Below are positions 1 through 17,908 of a stretch of DNA of 64,000 nt, piece after piece. The position numbers were made by a program, and so were the translations under genes. Source of the stretch: Lophium mytilinum. Lineage: Eukaryota. The stretch is from assembly GCA_010093605.1 (NCBI GenBank), contig MU004191.1:976816-1040815 (forward strand). Reading direction: 5' to 3'. The notes under the pieces were generated by a model. That model made no database searches and was not told the DNA's origin. It saw nothing but the letters and a program-made list of their open reading frames with translations. Every line of letters starts with the position of its first letter. Position 1 is the first letter of the stretch.

Positions 1-239
1 AGTTCTTTAAGGCTATATATCTATCTATTTATAGCTAGTAAATATTTATACTATATCCGCCGCTATTAAATATAATCTTAGTCTAAACTCTCTACTTTAT
101 CTTTCTTCTAGTCTCTACTATCTTTCTTCTCTAGCCTTAATTATCTCTAATAGTCTATTTTTTAGTATAATTATCTCTATTCTTATTATTATAGGTTGAA
201 AATCATTATTAAATAAGTTAAAAATTATAGGCCTTAGAA

Positions 240-3200
240 CTAAGGGTGCTAGTTAGCCTTTAAGTCTACTATTAGCACATTCTTAACTACTATAGTAGAT
301 AAGCTCCGGGGAGAGGAAAACTCTATTTATAAAGCGCGGGACTTAGCCTCTAAAGTTAAGCTAAGATAATAAAAGAATTCTTAAGCACGTTTTCTAATAT
401 AGGGAGAACTAGTTAAAATTTCCTTTTTATTCTATTAAGTAGGCTTTTTTTAATTGGCTTCTAGATAAACTAGAACTTACTTAGAACTTTTATTAGAATA
501 TAGTATTACTAGATAAAGCTAAGCTTAAACGCATATTTAATATATAGGCTAGTCTTAGGGCGGTAGTAATATAGCCTTAACTATAAGTAGAGGTAGGCCC
601 TATATTAAAAACCCCTTTTATAGTAATATCTTTAGATTAATAGGCCCTTTTTACTATCTTAAAGTCTATAGAAGCGCTAATAATAGATCTATCTTTAGAT
701 ATCTAACTATTAAGCTTAATATCTCCGGACGGAAAGTAAATTTTTAAACGCTTAAAGTCTCCGGACAGAAAGTAAATTTTTAAACGCTTAAAGTTTCCGG
801 ATAGAAAGTAAATTCTTAAACGCTTAAAGTCTCTAGATAGAAAGTAAATTTTTAAATACTTAAAGTCTCTAGACGGATAGTAGATTATTAAACGCTTAAT
901 ATCTCTAGATAGATAGTAGATTTTTAAACGCTTAATATCTCTAGATAGAAAGTAGATTTATAAACGCTTAATATCTTTAAATAGAGAGCTACTTTTTATT
1001 TACTTAATATCTCTAGATAGAAAGCTATTAGTCTTAGCCGCTAGTTAATATTTAGATAAATTTAATAAAGTAGCATTTAATATAACGCATAGAGTAGTAC
1101 TAACTCTACTAAAAATATTACTAATAAAATTTATAGTTAGTATAGTGCTAACTTAAGTTATAGTACTAGGTAATATACTTAAAGGCGTAATAGTAATCGG
1201 CTTAGAATAGAGTAAGTCTAGTAAGAATAAAAATAAATTAGAAAGTAATATTCCCCTTACTAGTATTAGTACCTCTAATAATAAGGAGAGCTTTAATAAT
1301 AGTAGCTTTTAGTTAGATTTTAACATTCCTACTACAGATAGTAATAATAAGTAGTAGCTACTAATAGTAATCTAAGTTCTCTTAATAAAGAGAATAATAG
1401 TAGTAAGAAGTTAGATAACCTCCGCGCTAATTATTAGTCTAGTTAACTTAAGTTCTAGATAAACTCCGCAGTTAATATACTAAGTAAAGCCCGGACCGAG
1501 CCTAAATATAATATAGCTATAATAGTGGCTAAATTTCTTAATATCTAGTAAGAGGGATTGCGGAGATTTACCTTTAAGAACCCTATCCGCTACCGCCTAG
1601 AAATTAAAGTAGGCTAATAATAACTTAGCCTTAATTTAGTTAAAATTATCTAGCTTATACTATTATAGTATAGTAAAATTTAGATTAACCTTACTTATAT
1701 ACCTAGTAGTCTAGGGTATAATAGTAATACTAACTTTACTAAACTAGGCGCCTAGATTAGTAATAAAATAATAGGGCTCTTATTAGCGTGCTTTCTTAAT
1801 AGAAGAGCTAATAATCTTAATAAAGTATAGCTAGATCTAGCCTCTTATTTCTATAACTTTATAGGTTCTATTTTAAATAATCTAAATAGGTACTTAGTAT
1901 TAGAAGAAGCTTATTATAATAGGTGTAATATTCTAGACTATACTATATATAAAGTTAGAGTCCTAAGATAAGTAGAGCTTAGAGACTTAGAATAAGTTGC
2001 GTATATTATTAAAGACTACGTTAGTAGGCTCCGCGTTTTAGTAATAGTAAATAGTATTATTTTCCCTATAGCTAGTAATAAGTCTTATTAGATAGTAGCT
2101 TATATTTAAGTATATAATAAGAAGATCTATATAAAGCTTTATAATTTCTTACCGGGGTATAGGCTAAAGAGATTAAAGCTAAAGAGACCTATATACTATA
2201 GGGCGGAATAAGATCTTCCTTATATTATATAGTTACTTAAACTTATACCGGGCTCTTATTTTTAGCCTTATAAGGTTAAGAATAAGGTAGTCTTTCTATC
2301 TTATAGGGAATAGTTTAATTCGGATAATTATAGACTAATTATTATCCTGCACGCGTTTACTTTACTTAATAGTAGAACGCCTACTAAGGCTATATTTAGT
2401 AAAGAAGAGAGTACTAAATTATATAAAATTACTATTTATAAGTTTTATATATAATTAAGAGACTAAGGTAACTTTAGTAAAGCTATTATAGAGTTTAAGT
2501 AGAGACTTAAAAATTATATTATTATTCTAGAGCCTACTCTAGGCTTAGATATTTTAAGCCAGACAATAAGTAAACTTAGCTAGTCTACCTCTAACTATAA
2601 TACTATAGATACTGCTCTATCTTAAATAGATATTAATTTACTATTATTACTTAGCACTTTTAATAACTACTACCTTAATATAGCGGCAATCCTTTTAACT
2701 ATTAGATATAGCAGTACTAAAAGTAATATAATTAGTATAAATAATACTATAAGAACTAAGAGTATAGTATAGAGATAGTAGACTATTTATAGGCCTATTA
2801 ATAAAACCTATAATTTCTCTTATAGTTTTACTAGTTTTAAGAATATAAATACCTACCTTAAGTTAACTACTAAGCCTACTATCTTTTAGGTAGAGTATAA
2901 GATACCTAGTAGAACTGCGCAGGTAGGTATCTTTAAGGGAATATATAATGCAAGCGTTTAAGAGTTACTAAACCGTATTAATAGATAACTAGATAAGTAG
3001 ACTATTCTAGTACTTTAATATAGTATTAAAGCTTTATCTATAGATATTAATAGCTTTAAATAGGCGATATAAATCTAGACTAATATTAATTTCTATTTAA
3101 CCTTAATTTTACTCTAGAGAAGTATTTAAGAGACTTTAAGTAATCCTAATAACGCGGAGTTTATACGCAGAGTATATATTAAGAATAGGGCCTAGCTAGC

Positions 3201-4302
3201 TTAGGCCTACTTTAGCTTTAAATACCTAGGGCTAGTACATGCCCTTAATTAAACTAAGGAGATAGTAGATAAGCTTAATTATTAATAGAGGAATAAGGTT
3301 CTAAAATATTAGTAACTAGTAAGAGTTCTTAACCTATATTCTACCTAGTATATTACTAAGTATAAAGTATCTAAATAGAATAATAATAGTCTTAATATTA
3401 GAATAATGCGAGTAAGAAAGAGAAATACTAGCTATTAAACGTATCTTCTACTCCCGTATTAGAGGGAAGGGTAAAATAGTAGTAGAAACACGTTTCCTAT
3501 TAAAATTCTAAACGCGAGTAATAGCGTTATCTATAGAGAGTATACTAGCTACCCTTACTTTAGATATATATACTATTATTATATTACTTATTCTACTAGT
3601 ATTACTTTACTAGAGAAGCGTAAGAGGTTTAAAATATAGATAATAGAAGAAGACGCGCTACTCTAGAAATATAAGAAGTTAAGATAGTAGACTATAGAAG
3701 AAGACGCGCTACTCTAGAAGCTAGTAAGATATAGCTTAGAATAGTTAGAAGTAGCTAAATATTTTAATAGGCGATTATAGTTAGTATTACGCGCGCGTGC
3801 TCTCTATTAGAGTTATAGACTTAGAGCTAGTAATATTTCTAAAATAGATATAAAGAACGCCGACTAGTTAATAGAGGTAAAGAAGCTACTTATAGAATTA
3901 GTAGGTAATTAATATAGACTAACTTAGTATAAAATAGCTATATATTTTAGTAGATATTTAGTAAGTATAGTCTATATAATATATAGTAGGCTTAGTAGAT
4001 AAAAGCTAAATATAGGTAATATAGTAAGTAAGCGGTCTAGAATCCTATAAATAACTAAAGAGAATAAGCTACTTAATAAACTTACTAGTAATAAATAAAA
4101 TATATAGGATTAAATTACTATATATTTTCTAGGTTATATAAATTAGGTATATAAACGGCGCTTACTCGCATTAAAGAAATTAAAACCCGGATACGCTATA
4201 AGAACTAGTAGTAAACGTTGCGCTTATTACGCTATATCTTATAGCGCTAACTCTAATAGTAATAACTCTAATAGTAATAACTCTAATAGTAACTCTAAGT
4301 AA
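240..4302 (+). pseudogene. RIP-inactivated large ORF with C-terminal Myb/SANT repeats (5' end approximate)
   Basis: Frame +1 from 3637, reading TAG/TAA as W/Q, gives W-T-x-EEDALLQKLVR-x-GLEW-x-EVA-x-YF-x-GR. Two further repeats follow (W..E.KKLL.ELV...W...A.YF and W..KE.KLL..L......W..I..YF.G.....C.RRL), then an acidic D/S-like tail and TAA at 4300-4302. The 36-bp repeat and the sampled 2161-2430 segment are in the same frame. Confidence 0.7.
715..1025 (+). repeat. 36-bp tandem repeat, ~8-9 copies (12-codon unit, de-RIP approx. VSGQKVDFQTLE)
   Basis: Unit TAAACGCTTAAAGTCTCCGGACAGAAAGTAAATTTT repeated with mostly transition differences. Confidence 0.9.
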
Positions 4303-5591
4303 GTATTTACGCCTATAGTCCCTAGTTTATTAAAAGTCTACTTAGAGTTTACTTTAGCGGAGTTTATAAATAAATTATTATTAGAAATATAAGTACGTAT
4401 TACAAGCGCTAATTATAGTATAGAATAGGTTAGTAACTTTTACTAGCAGTAAGAGTTTAAGTAATTTAGAGTAGGTTAGCGGGCGAATTACTTAAAAGGT
4501 ATTTATATAAGATAGCACAGCTATATAGCTATCTTCTTAGTTATATCTAGTAAGAGGAAGAAGAGAAGAGGGAAAAAAAGAGAGAGTTAGGCTAGTAGAT
4601 TAAAATTGCGTTAAATCCGTTCTAAACTAATACTCTTATAGAATATTAATCTTCTAGCTAGGTATATAGAGTATAGAGACTACTTTTCTTTTAGTAGTAA
4701 TTTCTATCTAACTCTACTCTATAACTAAGATACTCTAGTCTCTATACTCTATATTACTATCTTAGCCCGGCCCTCTTTTTCTAATAGTAACGACTAATAC
4801 TACTATATAGACTAATAGTAAGATTTACTTACTAAACTTATTTTAATGTCTAGTCTCTACTAATATAAAATCTTTTAAGCCTAACTAATTAAGCAGTATT
4901 TAACTATATAAGTAACTATTCTAAAACTTATATATACCTACTTAATACCTTCTTCTAGTAATTAGTCTACTAGAATAGTAAATATAAGTTAATATCTCTA
5001 TAACTCTAGAAGAGACCCCGCTGTAATTAAACCTAAAATTTAGTAGAATTTAAATCCTAGTTATATAATAGTAGAAGATCGGAGGTATTTTAAAATTAGT
5101 TATATATTTTAAACTATGTTAGAGAATTTAGACTAATTTAAAATAAACGTTAATTAAGTAGAATATTATTATTAAGTATTAAGAGGGAAGGTGCTAGAAG
5201 ATATATATATTGCCGCAGTTAGAAGTAGAATAAGAGGTAGTGCAACTCTAAGAAAGAATAGTATAGATAAGGCTAGCTAGGGATTTTAAGAGAATAGTAT
5301 ATACTAAGACTAGAAAATAAAGTATATATATTAATAGTAGTTAGATATTAACTATATAGATAGTTTAAGCGTATAGTCTAGATACTAGAAGAAGGCGGAT
5401 AAAAGAAAGGAAAATAGACTAAGAAGATAGTTTATTAGTTAATTACTACCTGCAAGCTACTAGTAGAACGGGTAGGTTAGTAGTATAATAGAAAGAATAG
5501 TATAGAAAATAATAAATATATAATAGAAAATATTAGAGTTAATATAGACTTAAGTTAACTATAAAGAGATAGAAAGAGGCGCGGCAGGGAA

Positions 5592-5594
<3 letters not shown>

Positions 5595-5648
<54 letters not shown>
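5595..5648. repeat. (GA)n microsatellite, followed by short (GATAA)n
   Basis: Seen directly. Confidence 0.97.
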
Positions 5649-5653
<5 letters not shown>

Positions 5654-5899
5654 GAGATAAGATAAGATAAGATAAGAGGGAAGAGAAGAGGAGGGCGGGG
5701 GTTAAGGAGTAACTACTATATAAGTAACTAACCTACATATTAAATAAGCTAAGATAGTAATAACTAGTAAGTTATATTATCTAAAAATACTTGCTAATCT
5801 TAAAACTAATTAAAATAATCTAGATATTATTACTATTTTATATTATCTACTAGCTATATCTTATATAACTAATAAATATATAGTTACTAGTTATAAGCT

Positions 5900-6950
5900 A
5901 TACTACTAACCTTTATATTTAGAAGAAATAAGACTAGCGCTACTTTTATAGAATCTACTAAAGAGTTATACCTAAGCTAGCATATTCTTCTTTTCTTTAA
6001 TCCGCGAAACCCTAATATATTAAGAACGGTAGCCTTTAAACTTTAGCTTTCTTTTTTCCTATTATAGATAAGTTAATAGCCTCTTATCTCTAACTAACTT
6101 TAACTCTTTTTAACTTTATTTTACCTTAGATCTACTTTCTCTACACTCTTAATAATACGGCTTTAATTAGACTACCTTAAACGCGGGTCTAAGTTTAGTA
6201 ATTATAGTATTGCATAGGATACTAAATTAACCTAATATAGTAAAAGCGCGCTCTATCTATTATAGTATGCGATGCTAGCACTCTTATAGCTTAGAAATTT
6301 ACTAATTACTTCTACCTATAGTCTAGAAACCGGCGAGACTTATAGAAATACTTCCCCTTAATTTAATAATAGAGATATAGAATAGAACTTTTAGAGTTAC
6401 TAATAGTTATCTATATTCTATATAGCGTTATACTAGATCTATACTTCTAATACTTTAAGGTAAGCCTAGCAGCTACTCTAACGCTATTTTTAATATCCTC
6501 GGGGACTATATTCTAGGCGCTAGAATTTATAGTTATTATATATAATAATAGTTAACTAGTAAGCTCTATATATATAAGGTTATTATCTAAGCTAATATAA
6601 AAGATATTCTTCTTACTAAGACCTAGAATACTATATATATTTTTATTAGAGAAGTTACTATTAATTAAAGAGACTACTATAAATAGGCACCTAGAGATTT
6701 ACTACTATTTACTAAACTACTTACTTATAGTTTTAGAGCGCGCCCGTTATATACTAATAAAATTCGCTCTTAGAGACTTAAGTACTATCTACTAACCTTC
6801 TAATTTACTTATTATAGATTCTAATATCTACTATAATTTAAACTACTATTACTAGGGTTAGTTTATATTTAAGAGAAGAAACTCTAGTATAATAAGAATC
6901 TTAAGGCTACTAACGGGGTATAGGTGTCTAGAATATATAATCTAGTAAAA
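5900..6950 (-). pseudogene. possible second RIP-inactivated ORF, product unknown
   Basis: One minus frame reads protein-like after W/Q restoration (e.g. VPEDIKN.V.VAARLTLK...GKYF.KSRRFLD). No family recognised. Confidence 0.3.
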
Positions 6951-7173
6951 ATTAATATAATAATTAGATAAAGATAGAAATATAAATAGATAATAAAGGT
7001 TAAAAATAAATAAAATTATTACTAACTGCGGTAAGTTCCATCCGTTACGTAATAAGTAAGGCTTAGCAGTTAGAGCCTTATTCTTATTTATTCCCCTCTT
7101 TATCTTATCTCTCTTTTAGGCTATATATAACTCTACTCTATATAGAATATTAGTAAAGTACTAAAACTTAATA

Positions 7174-8982
7174 TAATAATAGGTTCTAGCTTAGCTTTTT
7201 TACTAGCTTGCCTAGAGTTCTTAATTACCCCTACTACCTTATCTTTAATTTCCTCTCTCTACCTCGCCCCTTAAGCCGCATAATTTATAAAGCGTTAAGC
7301 TATATAATCTATAAAGTAATAATATACCTATATAGAATATTAGTAAAGTACTAGATTTAATTTAATAATAGGTTTTAGCTTAGCTTTTTTACTAGCTTAC
7401 CTAGAGTTATTTATTTAATCTTATTATATTTACTACTTTATAGCTTATAGTTTAGACGTTTTCCTCTTACTTATAGATCTACTATATTTTAGTATTATAT
7501 AGTATATTGCCTTTTATAATAGTCTATCTATAGCTAATAATAGTAGCAATAACGGTAGATTTAGTAATAGGTTTTAGCTTAGCTTTTTTACTAGCTTGCC
7601 TAGAGTTATTTACCTATCTTTATTATACTTTCTAGTTTATAGCTATTTTAATTACCTTCCTTAAAAGCCTATTAATAATAAATAGAGGCTGTAATAATAG
7701 TAGGTTAGATAATAGGTTCTAGCTTAGGTTCTTTACTAGCTTACCTAGAGTTATCTTATTATTTATTATATACTTAGAAACTATAAGCTACTATTCTTAT
7801 TTGCAACTTAAACTATTAATCTTACTAATACTACCTTATCTAGTAGCACTAGTCGATAAATAATATAGCTATTTTCTACCCTATCTATATTCTAGTTTAT
7901 ATAACCTATTCCTCTTTAATTAGTATAAACCGCTAGTAATTTTACAGTTAGGTAATAATTCTTAGCTTTAAACGCAGGAGCTCCCTCTATAACTACTCGC
8001 CCGCTATACTTCTACCTTAGTAAAAGATACAGAGCACTAATAACGTAAAAGCGGATTAACTAGATAATAGATTTTAGCTTAGCTTCTCTACTAGCTTACC
8101 CGGAGTCTTTATTCTACTTCTATTTTAAATTATTCTTATATATATTGCAGGCTATTCCCGCTATAAAACTAGACCCTAAATATCTTATTAGACTAAGCTC
8201 TACTAGTATCTCGGCCGATAACTTTAGTAGTTTCTATTTATCGACTAAATCTATATAAGTTATTAAGTTAGCGTTAAGATATATAATATTAGTAGTCTAT
8301 CTTACTATTACTAGGTAGTAGATAGGAGGCTAAGATCTTTTTTATACTTATATTCTAGAAATCCTATTACTTATAACTATCCCGTTACTCTTAAGACGGC
8401 AACTTAGTTAATTTAATAATAGGTTTTAGCTTAGCTTTTTAGCTAGCTTACCTAGAGTTATTTTTCTTTCTTCTTCTAATATTCTAAATTTTCTCGCGCA
8501 GTTATATTAATTCCAGCAGTTTTAGTAGTCTTAGTAGTTTTAGTAGTTTTAACTCTCTACTATTTTCTAATATCTTCTATGGCCTCCTAAAGTTTCTTTT
8601 ATAGATATTCTTATCTATTCGTCTTATTAATTACTTTTAGTTTCTTATTCTATTACGTCTCTTTTATCTACTTAGCGTAGGTTTATACTCTTTATTTATC
8701 TTATTAATTACTTTTAGTTTCTTATTCTATTATATCTCTTTTATCTACTTAGCGTAGGTTTATACTCTCTATTCGTCTCATTAATTACTTTTAGTTTCTT
8801 ATTCTGCTGCATCTCTCTCTTCTACTTAGCAAACTGTTAACTTAAATGTCGATTTAATAATAGGTTTTAGCTTAGCTTTTTTACCGGCTTGCCTAGAGTT
8901 ATTAACTACTAGTTATTATTAACTTAAAAGTCGATTTAATAATAGGTTTTAGCTTAGCTTTTTTACTAGCTTACCTAGAGTT
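7174..8982. repeat. array of eight 46-bp direct repeats with variable-length spacers
   Basis: TAATAATAGGTTYTAGCTTAGCTTYTYTACYRGCTTRCCYRGAGTY at 7174, 7363, 7562, 7707, 8062, 8414, 8855 and 8937. Confidence 0.92.
8610..8830. repeat. 77-bp tandem repeat (~3 copies) inside one spacer of the 46-bp array
   Basis: TYATTAATTACTTTTAGTTTCTTATTCT recurs at 8624, 8701 and 8778. Confidence 0.88.
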
Positions 8983-10142
8983 GTTAACTACTAGTTATTA
9001 TTAACTTAAATGCCGGTTTATTTTTCTTTTAGATTTTACAGTAACTTATAAAGATGTCTATTTATATTCTTATACTCTTACGCTTTTAACTTTCTTATTT
9101 TCTTTTCTTTTAGATTTTATAGTTAGTTATAAAGATATCTATTTATATTCTTATACTTCTTTATACTTTTAACTTTAAGGGACGGACTTTAAATCTATTA
9201 GTAGCGGAATAGATATATAATAGAGATTTACAGCTACCCGCTATAGATAACTTAGTAACTTCTAGGCGACTAAGATTTAGAGATAAAGGGGGCATATATA
9301 TATATATAAAATATATAGTAATACTTTACTTAATTATTATCTTATACTTTATTACCTTCTTTAGAAAGTAATTAGTATACTCCTCCGGTTCTAGCTAGCC
9401 TATTATATAATCTACGCGCTTCTCTACCTAGCTCGCCCTCTCTTTATGCCCCTTATATAACCTCTTATAATTAATCTACTTTCTTATACTTAATCTCTAT
9501 ATTATAACTATAACTTTAGGTTATATTACTAACTTATATACTAATTTTTTATAACTACCTCTTTTTCTCTATAGCTTTATTACTATATTAATAATTACTA
9601 ACCTACTACCGCCCTATTAGGTAATAGACAATTCTTACTACTTATTATATAATACTAGATAACTAGTAATATATAGTAATATTATTAATAGTTGCGTAAA
9701 CTTATACGCGCCCTTTTAGCTAAGTACATGCTTCTATAAAGGCTAGTCTTCTTAAGTAATCTTTAATATGCACTATTCCCTCCCCCGTTATACTATAGAT
9801 ACAATCTAATATTATAGTTATAGTATAGAGAAGCTTAGTAGTATAAGATAACTAGGTTAAATTTAAGAGGTTATATAAGGAGTAGAAAGAGAGGCTTCTA
9901 GAAAGGAACTATATATATAGAGAAGAGAGGCGCGTAGGCGCTAGGTAGGCTAGTATATAGGCGGTACTAGGTAATATAATAAGTATAGAAGTAGAAGGCT
10001 AGTAGCTAGTAACGGGTAAATATATAACTAGAGAATAGGGCATAATCTATTATAATCCGCGCTCTAGTTTTAAACTAGCTAATAACTCTATTACTAAAGA
10101 ACTATAGAAGCTTTTTAAAGAAAAAGCTAATATACTTACTAA

Positions 10143-13100
10143 GGGGAGAAGTTTTAATATACTCTCTTTTTACTCTATATATACCCCTTTTTTTATCTAT
10201 CTATACCCTTCTTATATCTAATCTTTTAATTAGCCTAGAGGGCTTAGATTACTACTCTAGCGCTTTATAGTAAGGCTATATAGCCTTTCTATTTTATTAT
10301 ATATTCTTACTATTTTTAATAGCCTATACTTAGCTATATATAAGGCTATAGAGAAGGCTATAAATAAAGCTATATATATAGGCTATATATAAGGCTAAGT
10401 AAGGCTACTTATAGTAAAGCTATATAGTATATCTATTTTACTATATATACTTTCTATTTTCTATAGTATATATAGGCTATTATATTACTATCTATATATC
10501 TATATATCTATAAGTATACTAAAATAGTTAAATTATTACCTTATTATAGCCTCTTTATATTAAACCTAGCCCCTCTATATTACTACTACGCCTCTCTAGC
10601 TATTTTAATCTATTAACCCCTCTATAAACTAATTATATAATACTATCTAATATTAGAGCTTCTTTTAAGAAAGTAGCGGCTTCTTATAAGAAAGTAGCGC
10701 TAGTACTATCTAAGGTTAAAAAACTAGCTAAGGCTAAGAAGCTAGCTAAAGCTTAGAATAAGCGCTATTATAATACTATATAGCCTCTTTTTTCTTTCTA
10801 AATATTTTATTCTTTATACTAGGCGGCTAGCTATACTTTTTAGGTATAGTAGTAGATATAGTAGTAGGTATAGGCATAAATATAGTAGTAGAAGGGGCCT
10901 AGCTATAACTATATACTTAAACTTAGGCGGATTAGTAAGTAAATTATTAAATTCTATAATAGCTAGTATATTAGCTAACTAAAAAGTACTCTAAGTAATA
11001 GAAGCTAGATAGAGGGCTATAAAAATAGGTAGTTCTAGTAGTAGAACTATTAGCGGGCGTTCTATAGATATATCTATAGGTCTAGCTACTATATCTATAT
11101 CTATAGTAATCTTAAATCTTAATAGCTCTCTCTATATATTATTATAGGTATAATAACCTCTTTTCTTAGTAGTAGGGCGGCTATAGTAACGCTTAATAAT
11201 AGTAGAATTAAGTACCTTCTAGAAAGAGGTAAAAGAAATAGCTAGCTAATATACTTCTAGCTAAATAAACTACTAATAGTAATCTATCTAATCTAGTTAT
11301 ATATAGTATATAGAATCTAATTAATTTATAAGCGCCTAGTATAGAGAATTATAAAGCTTATAAGTATATAGTATACTATAGATATTTTTAAAGATTTAAG
11401 TATAGTTATATAGGTTATATTTATTTAATTTTACCTTTTTAAGTTACTTATTAAGTAGAATAAGCGCCTATAGTATTACTTTTCTAAATAGATTATAGAA
11501 CTTCTTTTTATTAATATTATAATAAGTTCTAGTATATAGCGCTATCTTAAGGTTCTTATACTTTATTTTAGTAGTAAGAATAAGGTTTTATATATTAAGG
11601 AGAATGTTAAATAAATAGCTAGTTAATATCTAGAGAAAGCCTTTAAGCTAGCTATACGCGCCCTTATTTTATAATATAACTCTATAAAAAACTAAATTAG
11701 TATTATATACCTTTACTACTTCTTTATTTCTTAATTATTCTTTAAGCTATACTCTTATTCTTTTTAGCGCTACTTATTTAGTATATATATAGACCCTATA
11801 TAAAGTTTAGGTATTAAATTTAAATATCTTAGTATTAAGAAAAATTACTTATATAGTTCTAAAGTACCGCGCTATATAGGTATAGTAGGTAGCCTAAATC
11901 TATCTATATAGCTACTACTTATCCTCTATATACTTTACTAGATTAGGGCGCTTCTTATAGTTATTAAGTAGCTTCTTCTAAGTCTTATTAAACTATTCTA
12001 TAACCTCTAGCTTTATTATAGTAGTTTAATAGGTAATAAAATTACTCTTTTTCTTATACTACTTCTTCTTCTTAGCTATCTACTACTCTTCTATATTATT
12101 CTCTATTAGCGCATTAGAATAGCTTATAGAAAATAATAGTTTCTTTTTATATATATTAACTAGCTTAGTATTAATATTCTTTTTAATATACTATATATAG
12201 AGAAGGTGCTTAACTTCTAGCTATTATATATATAGTGCGTTTCTTAAAGCTTATTCTTTATCTATTAAGAAAATATATAGAGTAATAGAATAGCGCTTAA
12301 AGAGCTTAAAGAGCTACTATACTATCTAGTTATAGTTTACCTTCTTTTCTTATAGAAGGAAATAGTAGCTAATTTTAAAGTTATTATTTATATAAGTAAC
12401 GCCTATAATATATAGAAAGAGTATACTAAATTAGTTAGTTTTATAGGTATAGTCTATTAATATAATATTATAGTTTAATTAAAGAATCTTAATAGAATCC
12501 GGGTATATAAAGAAGAGGTATTTAATTTAGTTCTACTTATTCTTTATAAAGTTATAGAAGTACTTTCTATTATAGCTATTAGATACTAGGAATATAGAGG
12601 TTTCTAATATATTAAGAAGCGCCTAGATAGGCGTAAGGCTATTAAGAAGCTTCTTCTAGTAGCGTACGCACTTATTCCTAATATCTATAAGAGTAATAGT
12701 TACTTTCTTTTTAATAAGCTTTATATATATTTCTATAGGCCGCATTCTACTTAATATATTAGCTTAAATAAGGTAATTTATTAATACTAAGCGCTTTCTA
12801 TTATATATAACTACTAATAATTTAAGTATAGAAAAATAGTTATTATAAGAGGCCTCTATTATCTTCTATAGCTATATATATTTACTATTAAAGCTAGAAA
12901 GCTACTAAGTAAGAGTACTACTTATCTTATAGTTTACTCTATTAGTAGAGATACTATATATATATATAGTAGACTCTATAGTACTACTAAAGTAGTATTA
13001 AAACTATACTTTCTTTACTTTATAGCCCTTTTTATTTTTCTTTAAGTAGAACTTTATAAGCCTATAGCCGTGCGCTAATATATATACTTAAAGTACTTTC

Positions 13101-13373
13101 TTAGCTTTCTCTAGAGAGTTATAGGCCTACTATAGTAGTAGCTAGAGATTTATAGTAAGTATATTATAGAGGTATAGAATAAAAATATAATTATTTATAG
13201 CTATACTATACTTAAAGAGAGTATTTAGAATTAGTAAGAAACCTAAGTAAGTAAATTAGAGGCCTTAGAGAACCTTTCTAGGCTAATTAGAAGATTAAAT
13301 ATAAGGGGGGTATAGATAGATAAAGAAAGGGGTATATATAGAGTAAAAAGAGGGTATATTAAAACCTCTCCCC
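10143..13373 (-). mobile_element. RIP-degraded Mutator/MULE (Hop-like) DNA transposon, ~3.2 kb, 97-bp TIRs
   Basis: TIRs 10143-10239 and 13277-13373 (GGGGAGARGTTTTAATATAC...) differ only by transitions. De-RIP minus-strand translation gives MULE motifs YLFF.HP.S, D-C-TYKTN-x-F-G-M (~12454), TDKEQALRNAL and HLLC.WH..KN. No 9-bp TSD recognisable. Confidence 0.88.
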
Positions 13374-13375
13374 TA

Positions 13376-13983
13376 GATATAAACTAAATAAAAAGAGTTT
13401 ACTAACTATAAATAGAAGCTAGCTATAAAGTTTAAAATTAGTAACTAAGTTATACTTAATACTTATAATATTAAGATTTAATATTTAAATAAATTACTTA
13501 ACTATAAATAGCTTAGCCTATTTAAAGTTACTAAAGTTATTAATAATACTATCTATAAGCTCTCTCTTCTATATACTATAAAGAAAGTATTTAATATTTT
13601 CTATTTATAGCTACTCTATTATATTATATATAAGCTATTAAAAAGCTAAATCTAGAAAGAATTTAAATTTATTAAAATTAATAAAAAAGACTATAACTAA
13701 TAGAATATTAATAAGATTATTAACTTATATATTAATAATACTATACTTAATCTAACTACTATATAAAAAGACCTACTTTAATATAAAATTCTTAATACTA
13801 GTTACTATAAATAAAATACTAATTCTTAATAGAAGTTTTATACTAGTATTACTAACTACTATAATATTATTATAGACTATTACTATATCTATTTAAAAGT
13901 AAAAAATTTTTATAAGTTTTTCTAAAAGTCTAAATATTAAAAGCTACTACTTACTCTAATTATAATAATACTATATAGATAAT
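13376..13983 (+). mobile_element. RIP-degraded Ty3/gypsy (chromovirus) integrase C-terminus and chromodomain
   Basis: De-RIP translation FKIGDQV.LNT.NI......K.LDYKWLGPFKVTKVI..T.YKL.LP..MKKVFNVFH..LL (GPF/GPY motif), followed by chromodomain-like W.V.KI.DS...LQYKI...GY....W. Confidence 0.8.
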
Positions 13984-13993
13984 NNNNNNNNNN
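13984..13993. other. assembly gap (10 N)
   Basis: Run of n. Confidence 1.
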
Positions 13994-15539
13994 ACTTAAC
14001 TAGTACTAGCTAGCTAAGCTATTACTAATTTATATAAATTAGATAACGCTATACCGCGTAGACTGCGCGAATAAAGCTTAGTAATATATATAAAATTAAC
14101 TATATTACTAATTTTATATTTAAGACTTAGTAAGTATCTACTATAATCTAGAAAAATAATAAACTCTTTAAATAATTATAAGATAAATTAAATAAAGAAG
14201 AATTACTCTATAATAATAGTAAGTATATATACTAGAATAGAATACTATATCTTTTTTAAGTAGTAAGATTACTACTTATATTAACTATAATTAATAGCTA
14301 TATTAAGAGTACTATTACTATTTTTATTATAAAAGTTAATATCTATACTATAATCTAGTAAAATATATATAATACTTAGCTTACTAAGTTTAAATACTTT
14401 AATTAATAGTAAGTAGCTATTATCTAATATACTATTTAGGCGCACTTCTTATAGAAGTAAACCTTTATACCTAAAAAAATAGAAAGATTACCTAGCTATA
14501 ATATACTATTTACTAGGCTTAATTATAAGTTATAATTTTATTATATATAGTTCTAGGCTATAAGTCTAAATATATAGACTTATTATAGCTTAGCTCTAAT
14601 TTACCTACTTAACACCGCTATTAGGGGTAGTCTAGCTACTAAGTAGGCTAGAAAGTTATAGTTTTTAGTAATATTAATAGATAGAAATTAAGTAAATTAA
14701 AGTACTTTTCGCCTTCTAGTAAGTATAGCGACCCGCTTATCCCTACATTTCTTAATTATTATTAAAGTAGGCTTAATTCTAGTATCTAGGGTAATCTAAT
14801 ATATATATAATAACTTTAAAAGAACCTTAAGTTAACTTATACTAGTTATAGGGCACTTTCTAACTATTCCGCTTTAGAATTCTATTAGCTATCTTATTAT
14901 TCTACTATTCTAAGTTAGATCTAAGTAAGCTCTAAGGTAGAAAAAAGAAATAAATATACCTTAAAAGACCCTTTTAAAAAGGGCACTAGATACTTACTAG
15001 TAGGCTTTACTTTAGTCTATAAAAATAGGTCTTTCTTATTATTAGAATTAAAGTATTCTAGCTTTACTAATACTAACGCAGCTAGGGTAGACTTAGCAGC
15101 CTTTTTAGGCCTTAGGGTAGCCTTAGAGGCTATCTTAAAGTACTTTATCTTCTAAACTATACTAGCCTATCTATTATTAGCTTATTCTAAGTAACCCCTA
15201 AGGAGATTTAAAGATAAAAAGAAGCTTATAAAAGCTGCGCGTTTCTAAGACTTAGAAGGTATAGGTATTAGCGGGATTTCTATCTTTAGTTTAGGCTCTT
15301 TCTTTAACTACTTAAACTGCGCTAGAGTAGAAAGGCCGGTAGCTTTAATCTTCTTAAGTTCTTTCTTATAGCAAAGTATTACTATAATCTAATAGTTCTT
15401 AATCTTTATAATCTTCTTGCTACTAGGCTTTTCCTTAAACTTATTTTTTAGTTTAAGACTATAGTATTAAATAAGGTATATAGTAAAGTATTCTAGAGTT
15501 ATAAACTAGTCCTATATAAATATTAATAGTAAGCCTTAA

Positions 15540-16230
15540 GTATATTAGAAGTATATAAGAAGAAAGTACTTATATTATACTAGAAGTACTAGAACGTGTA
15601 GTCTTTATTCTTTTATAGCGGTTATAGCTTAAACTAGTAGTATACTACTCCCTCTAGGACTTTAACTTTAATATATTCCTTTCTCCCTAACTTCTTAGAG
15701 CCCTAAGATAGTTAGTATAAGTCTACTATAAGCACGCTCTAAGGATATTTAAAGGGCGCTTAATATATACTACTTTAACTATACTATCTATTTAGATATA
15801 TAGTTCGCTACTAAGTAGCACTAACCTAAGTACTAAGTATGCTCGCGCCTCTACCTTTAAAGAGATTGTTAGCTAAAAACTAGAAAGTATTAACTTCTCC
15901 TTACTTACTATGTTTATATAGGCGGGGGCTTTAACAGTTAAGTCCTATTTATCGCTAGATTAAACTATTTTTGCCATAATTTAGGCCTTATAAAGGCCTT
16001 AGGGCAGCCTTAGGGTGGTAAAGAAGGGCCTCTAGTAACAAGAAAAGCGGGAATTGGTTAATTTAGAGGGTGTTGTAGGTGGAGAGGTTGTGGAAGAAGG
16101 ATGAGGTCAAGATGGTGGGCAGTAGGTAGGACAAACCACGAGCGCGGCGGTCCCAGCTCCTCACTGCCTTTGCGAAAATCGGCGTGTCGTCCAGGAGCAG
16201 AATGAGTTCAAGACCTACACCGCCCATCAC
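15540..16230 (-). pseudogene. probable gene running into the RIP block, progressively inactivated
   Basis: ORF 16063-16329(-) continues in frame past TAA as IYQFPLFLLLEALLYHPKAALRPL*GLNYGK...GEV.TF*FLA.NLF.GRGAS...APF.YP*SVL.VDLY. TAA/TAG density rises toward the AT block. Confidence 0.5.
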
Positions 16231-16523
16231 TTCCACTCCGTTACTCCATTGGCGGCTATTTTCAGATGAGACACTGCTCACGGCAAGTCGAGTCCATCCC
16301 ACCGTCATTAGCCTGCCGATTGTGAACAATAGACTTCGTCACTTTTCAGAATGCCATCATATCAGCCGAAACATATGATATCTAGAGGCTACCATGCGTT
16401 TGATCTCTCTACAGCAATTTCTCATACTTCACCGTGTGTCTATTGGAGACTGCTAAGCTTCTTGGATACTCATCCTTCAGGCACGGTTGAGACAGTTCAG
16501 TGCTGTCTCACTCACGTCTCTAT

Positions 16524-17908
16524 ATGGTCTTGGATACCACTGCCACTGCTTTTGCTGGGACCCTCTTTGGTGCCTCCCTAACCGTCTCCGGCGTCTGGTT
16601 ACCCGAAGTAATCATCGGACAGTTCCAACTCCATGACTTCCACATGATCAAGGCCTTCCTCGTAGGAAGTGCCATTAGTGCGTACGCCTTCACTCAAAAT
16701 TCCTTCATCGATTTCACTAACCACACCGCAGCATCGTCCTCCCCTTCTTCGAACGGAATGGCCTGTTAGCATGCAAGCCCAAAGGCCCAACCAGTCTGGG
16801 CTGGTTCCACCGCTACGACGGCAACATCCTCGGCGGTCTGCTCCAGGGAGTTAGCATGGCGCTCACAGGCGCGTGTCCCGGTACTCTTGTCCCGCAAATA
16901 TTGATCGGATACCCATCAAGCGCACGCTTCGTGCTCCTCGGTGGCGTCCTTGGTGGAGTGCTCTTCACTCACATCTCACCGTGGCTATACCGGTCGTCAT
17001 CATCGCAGCCACCCATTTCGCCTATAAGCTGCATGCTCGACGACTTTGCGCCTTTCCAAAATGGCAAATCTAGACCCATCGACGAGATCACCCCCTCCAT
17101 CAACAGCAAAAACATCAAAAACGGCAGAAGCGAACCATCCTACCAACCCCCTCCTCCCCCAACCCTCCCCATACTCCCCGAGAACATCTCCCTCCCAGAA
17201 AACGACACCTCCCTCACCATCCCCTCTGTCCTCGACCCCATAATCGACATCTGCGACAGCCCTCTCAACGAACCCCCATGCCCTAAGCACTCTCTCCGGC
17301 CCACACCATGTCCCCTCACGATCCCCGCCCTCTTCAACCTCGACCCAAACACCTGCCTCCTCGCCTATCTTGCCTGCGTCCTCGCCATCCTCTCCGCCCT
17401 CTCCATCTTCGCCCCCGCACCCGCCCACAAACCCCAAACCCGTCTAAACGCCCACATAGGCGGTCTGGCAATCGGCGCCGCCCAGCTCGCAACCGCCGCC
17501 CTCATCCGCCTCCCCGTCGGCATGAGTCTCGCGTACGAAGAAGCTGGGGCGTGGCTGTGGCACCTCTTCCGCGCCCGCAAGCCGGCGCCGCGGTGGAAAG
17601 CCTTAACGTTCGCTGGCGGGATGGCGATTGGGTCATTCCTATGCACACCATGGGCGAAAGATATGCTAACCGACGATGGGGTTGGGGTAGGAGGGGGTAA
17701 GCCGGCGGTGAAAGTGTTGCAATGTGCGGTTATGGTGCTTGGGGCACGGATGGCGGGGGGATGTCCGTCTGGGCATGGGTTTAGCGGGATGGCGCTGCTG
17801 TGGGTGAGTAGTGTCGTTACTATTGCCGCGATTTTTGTCGGGGGGTTTGGGACGGCGGCGGTGATTAGGGTGGTTGCGGGGATGGAGGGGAGGGGTGGAT
17901 GGGTTTGA
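16524..17908 (+). CDS. YeeE/YedE (DUF395, thiosulfate/sulfur transport-like) membrane protein
   Basis: Motifs LFGASL..SGV..P.VI.GQF.L.DFHM, YDGNILGG.L.G..MALTGACPGT and GARMAGGCPSGHGFSG. One intron ~16683-16730 (GTACGC...CTAAC...CAG). Long Pro-rich central insert. Confidence 0.88.

Follow-up and report, generated by a model that had tools for sequence, protein, structure and literature searches.

A direct-repeat array of conserved boxes and freely varying spacers in RIP-saturated DNA of Lophium mytilinum, possibly a row of former docking sites

The array and its surroundings

The DNA analysed was a stretch of 64,000 nucleotides of Lophium mytilinum (assembly GCA_010093605.1, contig MU004191.1, positions 976,816 to 1,040,815, forward strand), here called the window, and all coordinates refer to it. 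Its left part, from position 1 to about 16000, is a RIP-saturated, AT-rich block that hosts an array of eight short boxes in the same orientation. Two indices diagnose RIP: TpA/ApT, when it clearly exceeds about 0.89, and (CpA+TpG)/(ApC+GpT), when it falls clearly short of about 1.03. They were 1.84 and 0.18 for 7001–9200, 1.80 and 0.10 for 1–15500, and 0.75 and 1.18 for the rest of the window, and the array region is thus RIP-affected. With its full RIP signature and nested dead transposons, including a MULE, the host block is like the large RIP-affected AT-rich regions of Pezizomycotina, whereas the array itself belongs to no recognisable repeat family of the block.

A preliminary description had listed eight same-orientation copies of a 46-bp core with periods of 189, 199, 145, 355, 352, 441 and 82 bp. 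Copy number, orientation and periods were exact; the core extent was revised, as each copy begins 3 nt earlier and the box measures about 52 nt. The following features were defined, with bit scores from the nhmmer profile of the box:

7133..7169, + strand: flank patch 5' of box 1, present again 5' of box 2 (7323–7359); local duplication beyond the box
7171..8985, + strand: whole array, eight direct boxes of about 52 nt and seven spacers (by profile, pattern and alignment)
7171..7222, + strand: box 1, 60.3 bits; G40 and C16 (box numbering) retained from the ancestral form
7360..7411, + strand: box 2, 60.0 bits; identical to the consensus
7478..7558, + strand: part of spacer 2 homologous to spacer 3 (7619–7703), far more diverged than the adjoining boxes
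7559..7610, + strand: box 3, 60.4 bits
7704..7755, + strand: box 4, 58.2 bits; 7 differences from the consensus
8059..8110, + strand: box 5, 54.3 bits; most divergent and least RIP-mutated, second CCGG (CCCGGAGTC) and CTTCTCT kept
8411..8462, + strand: box 6, 57.2 bits
8614..8830, + strand: 77-bp tandem repeat, 2.8 copies, within spacer 6, unrelated to the box unit
8852..8903, + strand: box 7, 61.3 bits; first CCGG (ACCGGCTTGCC) kept
8934..8985, + strand: box 8, 62.7 bits; true 82-bp tandem pair with box 7

Spacers 1 to 7 measure 137, 147, 93, 303, 300, 389 and 30 nt. When both strands of the whole window were searched with the profile, eight matches were obtained at 54.3–62.7 bits, followed by scores of at most 6.8 bits; all eight boxes were full length (profile positions 2 to 56 or 57), with no half-decayed intermediates. 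A 33-nt pattern with at most 3 mismatches recovered seven of the eight copies and had no match in 100 shuffles, and a RIP-degenerate 38-mer recovered all eight, exclusively on the + strand, again with none in shuffles. With the degenerate pattern no other box was found in the window, its 48 kb of un-RIPped DNA included. Neither a minus-strand box nor an inverted arm was present in the window, of which 7.1 kb is visible on the left of the array, and no terminal inverted repeat lies alongside it. A metagenome scan with the 38-mer returned 0 loci. An 18-nt inferred ancestral motif returned 79 single-hit loci from metagenomes, which were rejected as chance matches since none of the 79 carried the first half-site (see below) and none had two hits.

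Contigs from public reads, which probably represent the assembly's own sample and are hence not independent, agreed with the window without any difference over 5702–7216, 7578–8437 and 8943–9832; their breaks inside the array are those that repeated 31-mers would cause. The organism's own contigs did not hint at another copy, of 80% likeness or above, over 1–9350, unlike over 9351–14300; as variants can go missing from contigs, the evidence is weak. The lack of such a hint is odd for a mobile element, though old copies could have been lost.

Conservation of the boxes and age relative to RIP

Column identity was 0.87 within the box, 0.39 on both flanks and 0.30 for random sequence, with the fall occurring within a few columns, the value for the box being inflated at former C/G sites, as RIP saturation drives homologous copies to one end state. 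Differences from the consensus comprised 22 transitions and 7 transversions (8 × 52 nt), in line with the earlier statement that the cores differ mostly by RIP-type changes; non-RIP divergence therefore amounts to just 7 transversions per 416 nt. Units 2 and 3 allow a direct comparison: their boxes are identical at 50 of 52 positions with 0 transversions and 0 gaps, whereas outside the box 91 columns match, 12 differ by a transition and 25 by a transversion, and 24 contain gaps. By both measures the boxes have been kept far better than their flanks.

The spacers share patches only, as had been described, and are not as alike as the cores. By plain alignment, pair 7–8 alone among the 28 spacer pairs outscored all 100 random segments of the AT-rich block; after collapsing to purines and pyrimidines, pairs 2–3 and 7–8, the only two that are clearly homologous, outscored all 200 controls. 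The remaining 26 of 28 could not be clearly aligned even in that reduced alphabet, and short common patches occur elsewhere. Together with the few transversions in the boxes, this argues that the spacers differ by origin or turnover, not by uniform decay. The patch shared by 7133–7169 and 7323–7359 marks a younger local duplication reaching past the box. No convincing match of a spacer was found elsewhere in the window, the best (43 nt, 77% identity, E 0.002) being low-complexity and AT-rich.

That the box was originally richer in GC and had two CCGG sites, as proposed beforehand, follows from copies 5 and 7, and its end is inferred to have read roughly ...CTTCTCTACCGGCTTGCCCGGAGTC. As box 7 retains the first CCGG and box 5 the second, the array existed before RIP struck. 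Within the box, two direct 9-nt half-sites (TAGCTTAGC and TAGCTTRCC) start 17 nt apart, a pair that is unremarkable given a roughly estimated 0.4 such pairs expected by chance per 52-mer of that composition. The suggested pairing of the CCGG palindromes into a hairpin was not borne out in the present-day boxes, which as DNA fold no better than their shuffles (z −2.06 to +0.79); for only one of the eight did no more than 5 of the 200 shuffles do as well.

The array is not a simple satellite, as had already been argued from its spacing. No hidden period of about 80 bp was present, and the top autocorrelation lags, 388 and 352, are box-to-box distances. The tandem units of 77, 81 and 82 bp are mutually unrelated (82 versus 77, z 0.7; 82 versus 81, z 0.4; 77 versus 81, z 2.5, a score reached by 8 of 300 controls). 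Homology over the whole unit, as in a tandem minisatellite, was restricted to boxes 7 and 8 (8837–9010, 82 bp, 2.1 copies, 94% matches), with units 2 and 3 homologous in part. Insertion at a fixed point of the 82-bp unit was considered as well, since by eye several spacers looked alike at their ends to the 30-nt spacer; scores were marginal at best, and this for the 5' part of spacer 4 and the 3' 15 nt of spacer 6 alone, so the idea was dropped. Satellite arrays may keep one conserved protein-binding box, as does alpha satellite with the CENP-B box. Such arrays are similar in that a short box in one orientation is conserved well above the remaining unit; they differ in that here only boxes 7 and 8 form a true tandem pair, with 2 and 3 a partial one, and no fixed period exists.

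Coding, RNA and mobile-element content

The array is non-coding, in agreement with the preliminary description: translation of 6501–9500 in six frames, with stops as X, gave 0 Pfam families. Likewise nothing was found in the six frames of 1–7000 or on the + strand of 9001–16000. The sole Pfam match in 1–16000 was a MULE transposase domain on the minus strand (12176–12466); its detection indicates that the stop-as-X search works in the block, in which RIP lowers the sensitivity of protein-domain searches. Membership of a large mobile element, which had been suggested, found no backing in 1–9500, where 0 transposon protein domains were detected on either strand, a PIF/Harbinger DDE transposase (DDE_Tnp_4-type) included.

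A Myb protein upstream had been put forward as a possible partner of the boxes. In the candidate frame (3601–4050, frame +1), where a putative Myb-like relic spans 3685–3822, Pfam found no family even with E relaxed to 10. The closest PDB match, a MYB21 repeat, was not significant (E 0.35), and stop codons of the query aligned with the Myb tryptophans or next to them. A connection between this candidate and the array is only weakly supported, and nothing ties the one to the other.

Rfam searches of 6500–9500 (E up to 1) and of the whole window (gathering score) were both negative, and ARAGORN predicted 0 tRNAs in 1–16500. Readings of the box as a tRNA A/B-box, a C/D-box or a TFIIIC site were compared by eye and rejected, each failing at one key position at least. 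The read run X3, guessed to be RNA, had nothing on 1–9350, which says nothing about expression.

Possible origin and role of the array

The array is tentatively read as what RIP has left of an iterated series of boxes to which a protein would have docked, part of an extinct element or of a non-coding locus; the boxes would have been selected or homogenised while the spacers turned over. This is a possible account, held with less than even confidence. Before RIP, the locus would have borne at least eight direct copies of a GC-richer box of about 52 bp, which most likely served as repeated docking sites, either for a DNA-binding protein with sequence specificity or for a partner of the box transcript. 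The boxes may have come from a mobile element that has since died out, in its non-coding part, or from a non-coding locus, and a binding function would lie behind their conservation, with selection or homogenisation holding them constant and the intervening DNA changing through indels and local duplications. RIP would then have swept the region, C to T and G to A independently in each copy, with loss of CCGG from most copies, and left an array that is presumably inert now.

The closest functional parallel is provided by the transposase-binding repeats of Galileo and Muta1, which are long-TIR, Foldback-like elements. According to the passages cited, Galileo has secondary binding sites about 70, 561–577 and 701–718 bp from its end (PMC3688188), and the subterminal repeats of Muta1 are 12 bp long with linkers of 3–4 bp, a higher repeat number giving more transposase binding and excision (PMC5499845). 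As far as these accounts go, both present iterated same-orientation short boxes across 0.1–1.2 kb of non-coding transposon DNA, with binding sites lying within larger direct repeats and repeat number mattering for binding (PMC3688188, PMC5499845), and the array is like the secondary sites of Galileo in its single orientation and irregular spacing (PMC3688188). It differs from what is described there in the length of its box (52 nt versus 12–18 nt) and in its unrelated spacers of up to 389 nt, and no inverted partner arm, terminal motif, transposase or second genomic copy was seen. Subterminal repeats in known elements are also far shorter and more closely packed, which weighs against the docking reading. 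Among the results of the literature search that gave these subterminal-repeat comparators, no similar array in RIP regions appeared, although one may nevertheless have been published.

The main rival to the docking reading is a neutral one, in which the array would be a by-product of serial, overlapping local duplications; the box would be the segment common to young duplications and never have been functional, and RIP convergence together with spacer indels would mimic a repeat with unrelated spacers. This is judged rather unlikely, although several observations speak for it. The neighbourhood is rich in local duplications without a box, namely tandems of 24, 77 and 81 bp and the patch pairs 7283–7310/8262–8289 and 8336–8359/8465–8488. 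The flanks held in common vary from pair to pair (37 nt on the 5' side for boxes 1 and 2, about 35 nt on the 3' side for boxes 2 and 3, 53 nt upstream for boxes 3 and 4, the whole unit for boxes 7 and 8); such differently sized extended flanks are what serial neutral duplications would give, and they count against docking sites. The little non-RIP divergence of the boxes would also fit youth. However, random breakpoints should yield truncated copies, whereas all eight boxes are complete with the same sharp ends; the homologous units 2 and 3 have diverged far more in their flanks than in their box, contrary to what uniform neutral decay predicts; and the three long spacers (303, 300 and 389 nt) are without counterpart in other units.

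Insertion of a miniature mobile sequence on eight occasions, either MITE-like or as a minus-strand duplicated intron of a RIP-destroyed gene, is improbable. Insertion would be expected to give sharply bounded copies of one length and orientation, irregularly spaced between unrelated flanks, as seen here; on the minus strand the box starts with AG/GTAAGC, and box 4 ends in the branch-point-like ATCTAAC. However, the donor GT is a RIP product: five boxes have GTAAGC and three GCAAGC on the minus strand, and the + strand G that yields GCAAGC in boxes 1, 3 and 7 is the pre-RIP state. Neither a conserved acceptor nor a polypyrimidine tract is seen past the box, no frame carries an exon-like protein signal, inspection of the flanks showed no target-site duplication or terminal inverted repeat that was consistent among copies, the degenerate pattern gave no further copy in the 64 kb, and the core was not recognised as an LTR or MITE terminus. 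Introner-like elements and intron duplications within the same gene are documented in wood-dwelling Dothideomycetes, the cited passages giving the former about twice the length of regular introns and a stable structure (PMC3609843). Such elements lend the intron variant a precedent in the same fungal class and, so far as described there, resemble the array as near-identical short segments in one orientation, irregularly spaced in unrelated surroundings (PMC3609843). Unlike them as characterised in that source, the box of about 52 nt folds no better than shuffles (PMC3609843). Further differences are that its donor was ancestrally GC, that it has no conserved acceptor and that no further copies were found in the window.

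An array of small RNA genes, that is, a tandem-dispersed RNA of 50–90 nt, snoRNA-like or transcribed by Pol III and later killed by RIP, has a slim chance. Unit size, single orientation and a conserved body with variable intergenic spacers would fit, and a C box, TGATGA, altered by RIP could underlie the TAATAA with which the box begins (by eye, such motifs being common in RIP DNA). That reading does not fit boxes 3, 4 and 5, though, comparison by eye with A/B boxes and tRNA arms fails at key positions, and no Rfam match, ARAGORN tRNA or fold signal was obtained.

The preliminary description had likened the layout to CRISPR or integron arrays, and in the alternation of direct repeats with unrelated inserts the resemblance stands. 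Both analogies nevertheless fail: the host is a eukaryote, a RIP-bearing fungus, spacer lengths vary between 30 and 389 nt, the period is irregular, and cas genes (with no Pfam family in 1–9500 on either strand), an integrase or other recombinase, a structured repeat and spacer matches elsewhere in the window are all absent. That the boxes were site-specific recombination sites of a fungal mobile element and the spacers captured DNA, as in an integron, is highly improbable, since beyond a layout of same-strand conserved boxes and unrelated inserts of widely differing length there is no recombinase or integrase domain in the six stop-as-X frames of 1–16000, the boxes are unstructured, and the spacers have neither an ORF or domain nor a convincing match elsewhere in the window (best E 0.002). 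To our knowledge, no such cassette-capture system exists in eukaryotes.

Taken alone, the array matters little, being a single, dead and apparently unique locus in RIP-wrecked DNA with no living function to assay. Its value is that of a marker: the conservation cliff at the edges of the boxes shows that a short element was once held constant amid changing surroundings, and such conservation footprints survive RIP saturation. In a far-reaching version, given very little credence here, arrays of conserved boxes and free spacers would be a recurrent functional class of non-coding DNA in this fungus, of which the present one is a RIP-killed paralogue, serving as docking rows for a dedicated DNA- or RNA-binding factor or, most boldly, as recombination sites of a segment-capturing fungal element. 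Intact relatives, if found across the genome or in other species, would provide a box that can be tested and possibly the factor that binds it.

The array and its surroundings

Eight direct copies of one family (boxes 1–8, about 52 nt each, 7171–8985, plus strand) were detected with a repeat finder, starting at 7171, 7360, 7559, 7704, 8059, 8411, 8852 and 8934, each 3 nt before the start given in the preliminary description. The latter proved to be a good account of a real feature, and its start-to-start distances (189, 199, 145, 355, 352, 441 and 82 nt) were reproduced exactly. A 33-nt pattern at up to 3 mismatches matched 7 of the 8 copies and had 0 matches in 100 dinucleotide-preserving shuffles; a pattern degenerated for repeat-induced point mutation (RIP), with all T set to Y and all A to R, matched all eight, on the plus strand only, with no other match in 64 kb. 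With an nhmmer profile built from the boxes, these scored 54.3–62.7 bits, and elsewhere in the window the top score, both strands included, was 6.8 bits, a gap which sets the copy number at exactly eight, every one full length; decayed intermediate copies were absent from both strands of the 64-kb window. Contigs from two public sequencing runs (X1 and X2) showed 0 differences from the window over 5702–7216, 7578–8437 and 8943–9832, an agreement which is not independent, as both runs stem from one sample and are probably the assembly's own. The contigs are interrupted within the array, an outcome that repeated 31-mers would produce.

The array lies in an AT-rich block from 1 to ~16000 (GC 0.20–0.31; remaining window about 0.5), which is RIP-saturated, with TpA/ApT of 1.8 and (CpA+TpG)/(ApC+GpT) of 0.10 (outside, 0.75 and 1.18). 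Features of the block and its edge were as follows.

714–1024: 36-bp tandem repeat, 8.6 copies, 85% matches, also within the RIP block
3608–3822, frame +1: possible Myb/SANT-like relic region, with a 51-bp tandem duplication at 3608–3709
5595–5690: long (AG)n/AGAGA-rich simple repeat, strong purine skew
6000–10000: strand composition switched to pyrimidine-rich
8614–8830: 77-bp tandem repeat, 2.8 copies, within the array, unrelated to the box unit of 82 bp
9022–9176: 81-bp tandem repeat, 1.9 copies, adjoining the array, unrelated to the box unit of 82 bp
9437–9894: MITE-like unit of ~458 bp, two inverted 45-nt repeats, 84% complementary, flanking 368 nt, where similar-sequence contig cover first climbs steeply
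10143–13373: RIP-mutated Mutator-like (MULE) DNA transposon, 3.2 kb, containing a transposase domain; 98-nt terminal inverted repeats, 93% complementary, first bases GGGGAGARGTTTTAATATAC; many similar contigs among the genome's own reads
12176–12466, minus strand: MULE transposase domain (Pfam, stops as X, E 1.1e-7)
13984–13993: assembly gap of 10 N, in the repeat-rich portion of the block
~16000: sharp AT/GC boundary, GC 0.33 to 0.53 in 250 bp, RIP indices back to normal
16721–17905: sulphur-transport family ORF, where the first intact-looking genes start just past the block

One contig links 10130 to 13374, corresponding to the MULE empty site. Reading stops as X, no Pfam family was found in six frames of 1–7000 or 6501–9500, the latter in agreement with the array being non-coding as described, nor on the plus strand of 9001–16000; recovery of the MULE domain indicates that this reading is effective on RIP-mutated DNA. 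Summed contig depth over 1–9350 was near that of single perfectly matching contigs (X1, 21–44; X2, 72–101, and 170 in 8801–9350) and rose to 189–3934 over 9351–14300. Contig depth thus gave no indication that the array region exists twice at ≥80% likeness; this is weak evidence, contigs losing variants and short matches.

Box conservation and spacers

The eight copies were aligned together with their flanks (25 nt upstream, about 45 nt downstream); column identity, averaged over pairs, was 0.87 across the ~52 box columns versus 0.39 in each flank (random expectation from base composition, 0.30), the fall spanning only a few columns. Departures from the box consensus were 22 transitions and 7 transversions in 416 nt. 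Box 7 retained ACCGGCTTGCC, corresponding to ACTAGCTTRCC elsewhere, and box 5 retained CCCGGAGTC, corresponding to CCTAGAGTT elsewhere; the ancestral box thus carried both CCGG sites, as had been supposed, and the copies lost them independently, which places the array before RIP action. Pairing of these palindromes had also been suggested; folded as DNA, the eight present-day boxes were no better than shuffles (z −2.06 to +0.79), just one being equalled by ≤5 of 200, and the hairpin claim went too far. Within the box, TAGCTTAGC and TAGCTTRCC form a pair of similar 9-nt half-sites in direct orientation, their starts 17 nt apart; by a rough estimate, such a pair is statistically unremarkable for a 52-mer of this composition.

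The spacers measured 137, 147, 93, 303, 300, 389 and 30 nt, and the 30-nt stretch downstream of box 8 (counted as spacer 8) repeats spacer 7. All 28 spacer pairs were scored against random segments from the RIP block. Using plain local alignment, only pair 7–8 exceeded all 100 controls, with 3–4 of 100 equally good for the marginal pairs 2–3, 1–5, 4–7, 4–8, 6–7 and 6–8; upon purine/pyrimidine collapse, by which RIP-type transitions are removed, only 2–3 and 7–8 exceeded all 200 controls, with 5–8 of 200 equally good for 1–2, 2–4, 4–7 and 6–8. Short shared patches from window scans were:

7133–7169 with 7323–7359
7419–7448 with 7618–7647
7505–7557 with 7650–7702
7283–7310 with 8262–8289
8336–8359 with 8465–8488

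The long spacers 4, 5 and 6 had no counterpart in other units in the pair comparisons, and no spacer had a convincing match in the rest of the window, as protospacer-style targets would give. With few pairs above controls and no hidden ~80-bp period in the array, spacers were not as alike as boxes once RIP changes were removed. The nearby 77-, 81- and 82-bp tandem units are mutually unrelated; copies of the first two differ at CG versus TA sites and would therefore also predate the last RIP. Units 2 and 3 (box plus adjoining spacer) are homologous throughout, their boxes being identical at 50 of 52 positions with 0 transversions and 0 gaps, whereas the other aligned columns comprise 91 matches and 24 gaps, along with 12 transitions and 25 transversions. 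In comparison with the flanks around it, the box was thus kept or else homogenised, consistent with the preferential conservation originally described.

Candidate function and alternatives

The favoured reading is that of a short element which would be either constrained or homogenised. The best-fitting mechanism, put forward tentatively and at somewhat less than even confidence, would be docking sites set in a row and serving a sequence-specific binding factor. The closest functional parallels are the secondary transposase-binding sites in Galileo's ends, which are long and carry internal repeats (PMC3688188), and the subterminal repeats of Muta1, higher numbers of which give more binding and excision (PMC5499845). 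Unlike such transposons, the array has no inverted arm, transposase or terminal motif and no sign of a second copy, so that membership in these families is not supported and its assignment to a mobile element was overdrawn. The Myb protein proposed as binding factor fared similarly, with no tie to the array across 3.4 kb. Frame +1 of 3601–4050 (...xxTIEEDALLxKLVRYSLExLEVAKYF...) gave no Pfam family with the cut-off relaxed to E 10. Among 177,635 PDB sequences the top match, to a MYB21 Myb repeat, fell short of significance (E 0.35), with query stop codons at or beside conserved Myb tryptophans; a RIP-mutated Myb/SANT-like relic at ~3685–3822 is plausible but not established.

The strongest alternative to docking sites, though rather unlikely, is serial micro-duplication without selection in a region prone to duplication. 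Plain decay of a tandem duplication is disfavoured by boxes that are uniformly full length, by the abrupt fall in conservation at their edges and by the contrast of box and flank within homologous units. Less probable still is a small inserted unit or a duplicated intron. On the minus strand the box opens with a donor-like AG|GTAAGC; an introner-like element was rejected, as the pre-RIP G in boxes 1, 3 and 7 gives GCAAGC instead of the GTAAGC donor, the acceptor is not conserved, a stable fold is absent and the conserved part is just ~52 nt (introner-like elements are described as ~2× regular intron length and stably structured; PMC3609843). A dead small-RNA gene cluster is very improbable, with 0 Rfam matches at E up to 1 in 6500–9500, 0 across the full window at the gathering threshold, and 0 tRNAs by ARAGORN in 1–16500. 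Cassette capture is scarcely credible; recombinase, cas gene and regular spacing are all absent, which confines the proposed CRISPR or integron resemblance to layout.

A RIP-degenerate 38-mer had 0 matches in a metagenome collection. An 18-nt inferred ancestral motif gave 79 single hits in metagenomes, which are taken as chance matches because none of the 79 carried the first half-site and no locus had two hits. With no relatives found in the window or this collection, the array, which is now dead, is apparently unique. Overall, the preliminary interpretation stands for a non-coding, pre-RIP array with preferentially conserved boxes, and goes too far on the mobile element, Myb link, hairpin and CRISPR/integron analogy.
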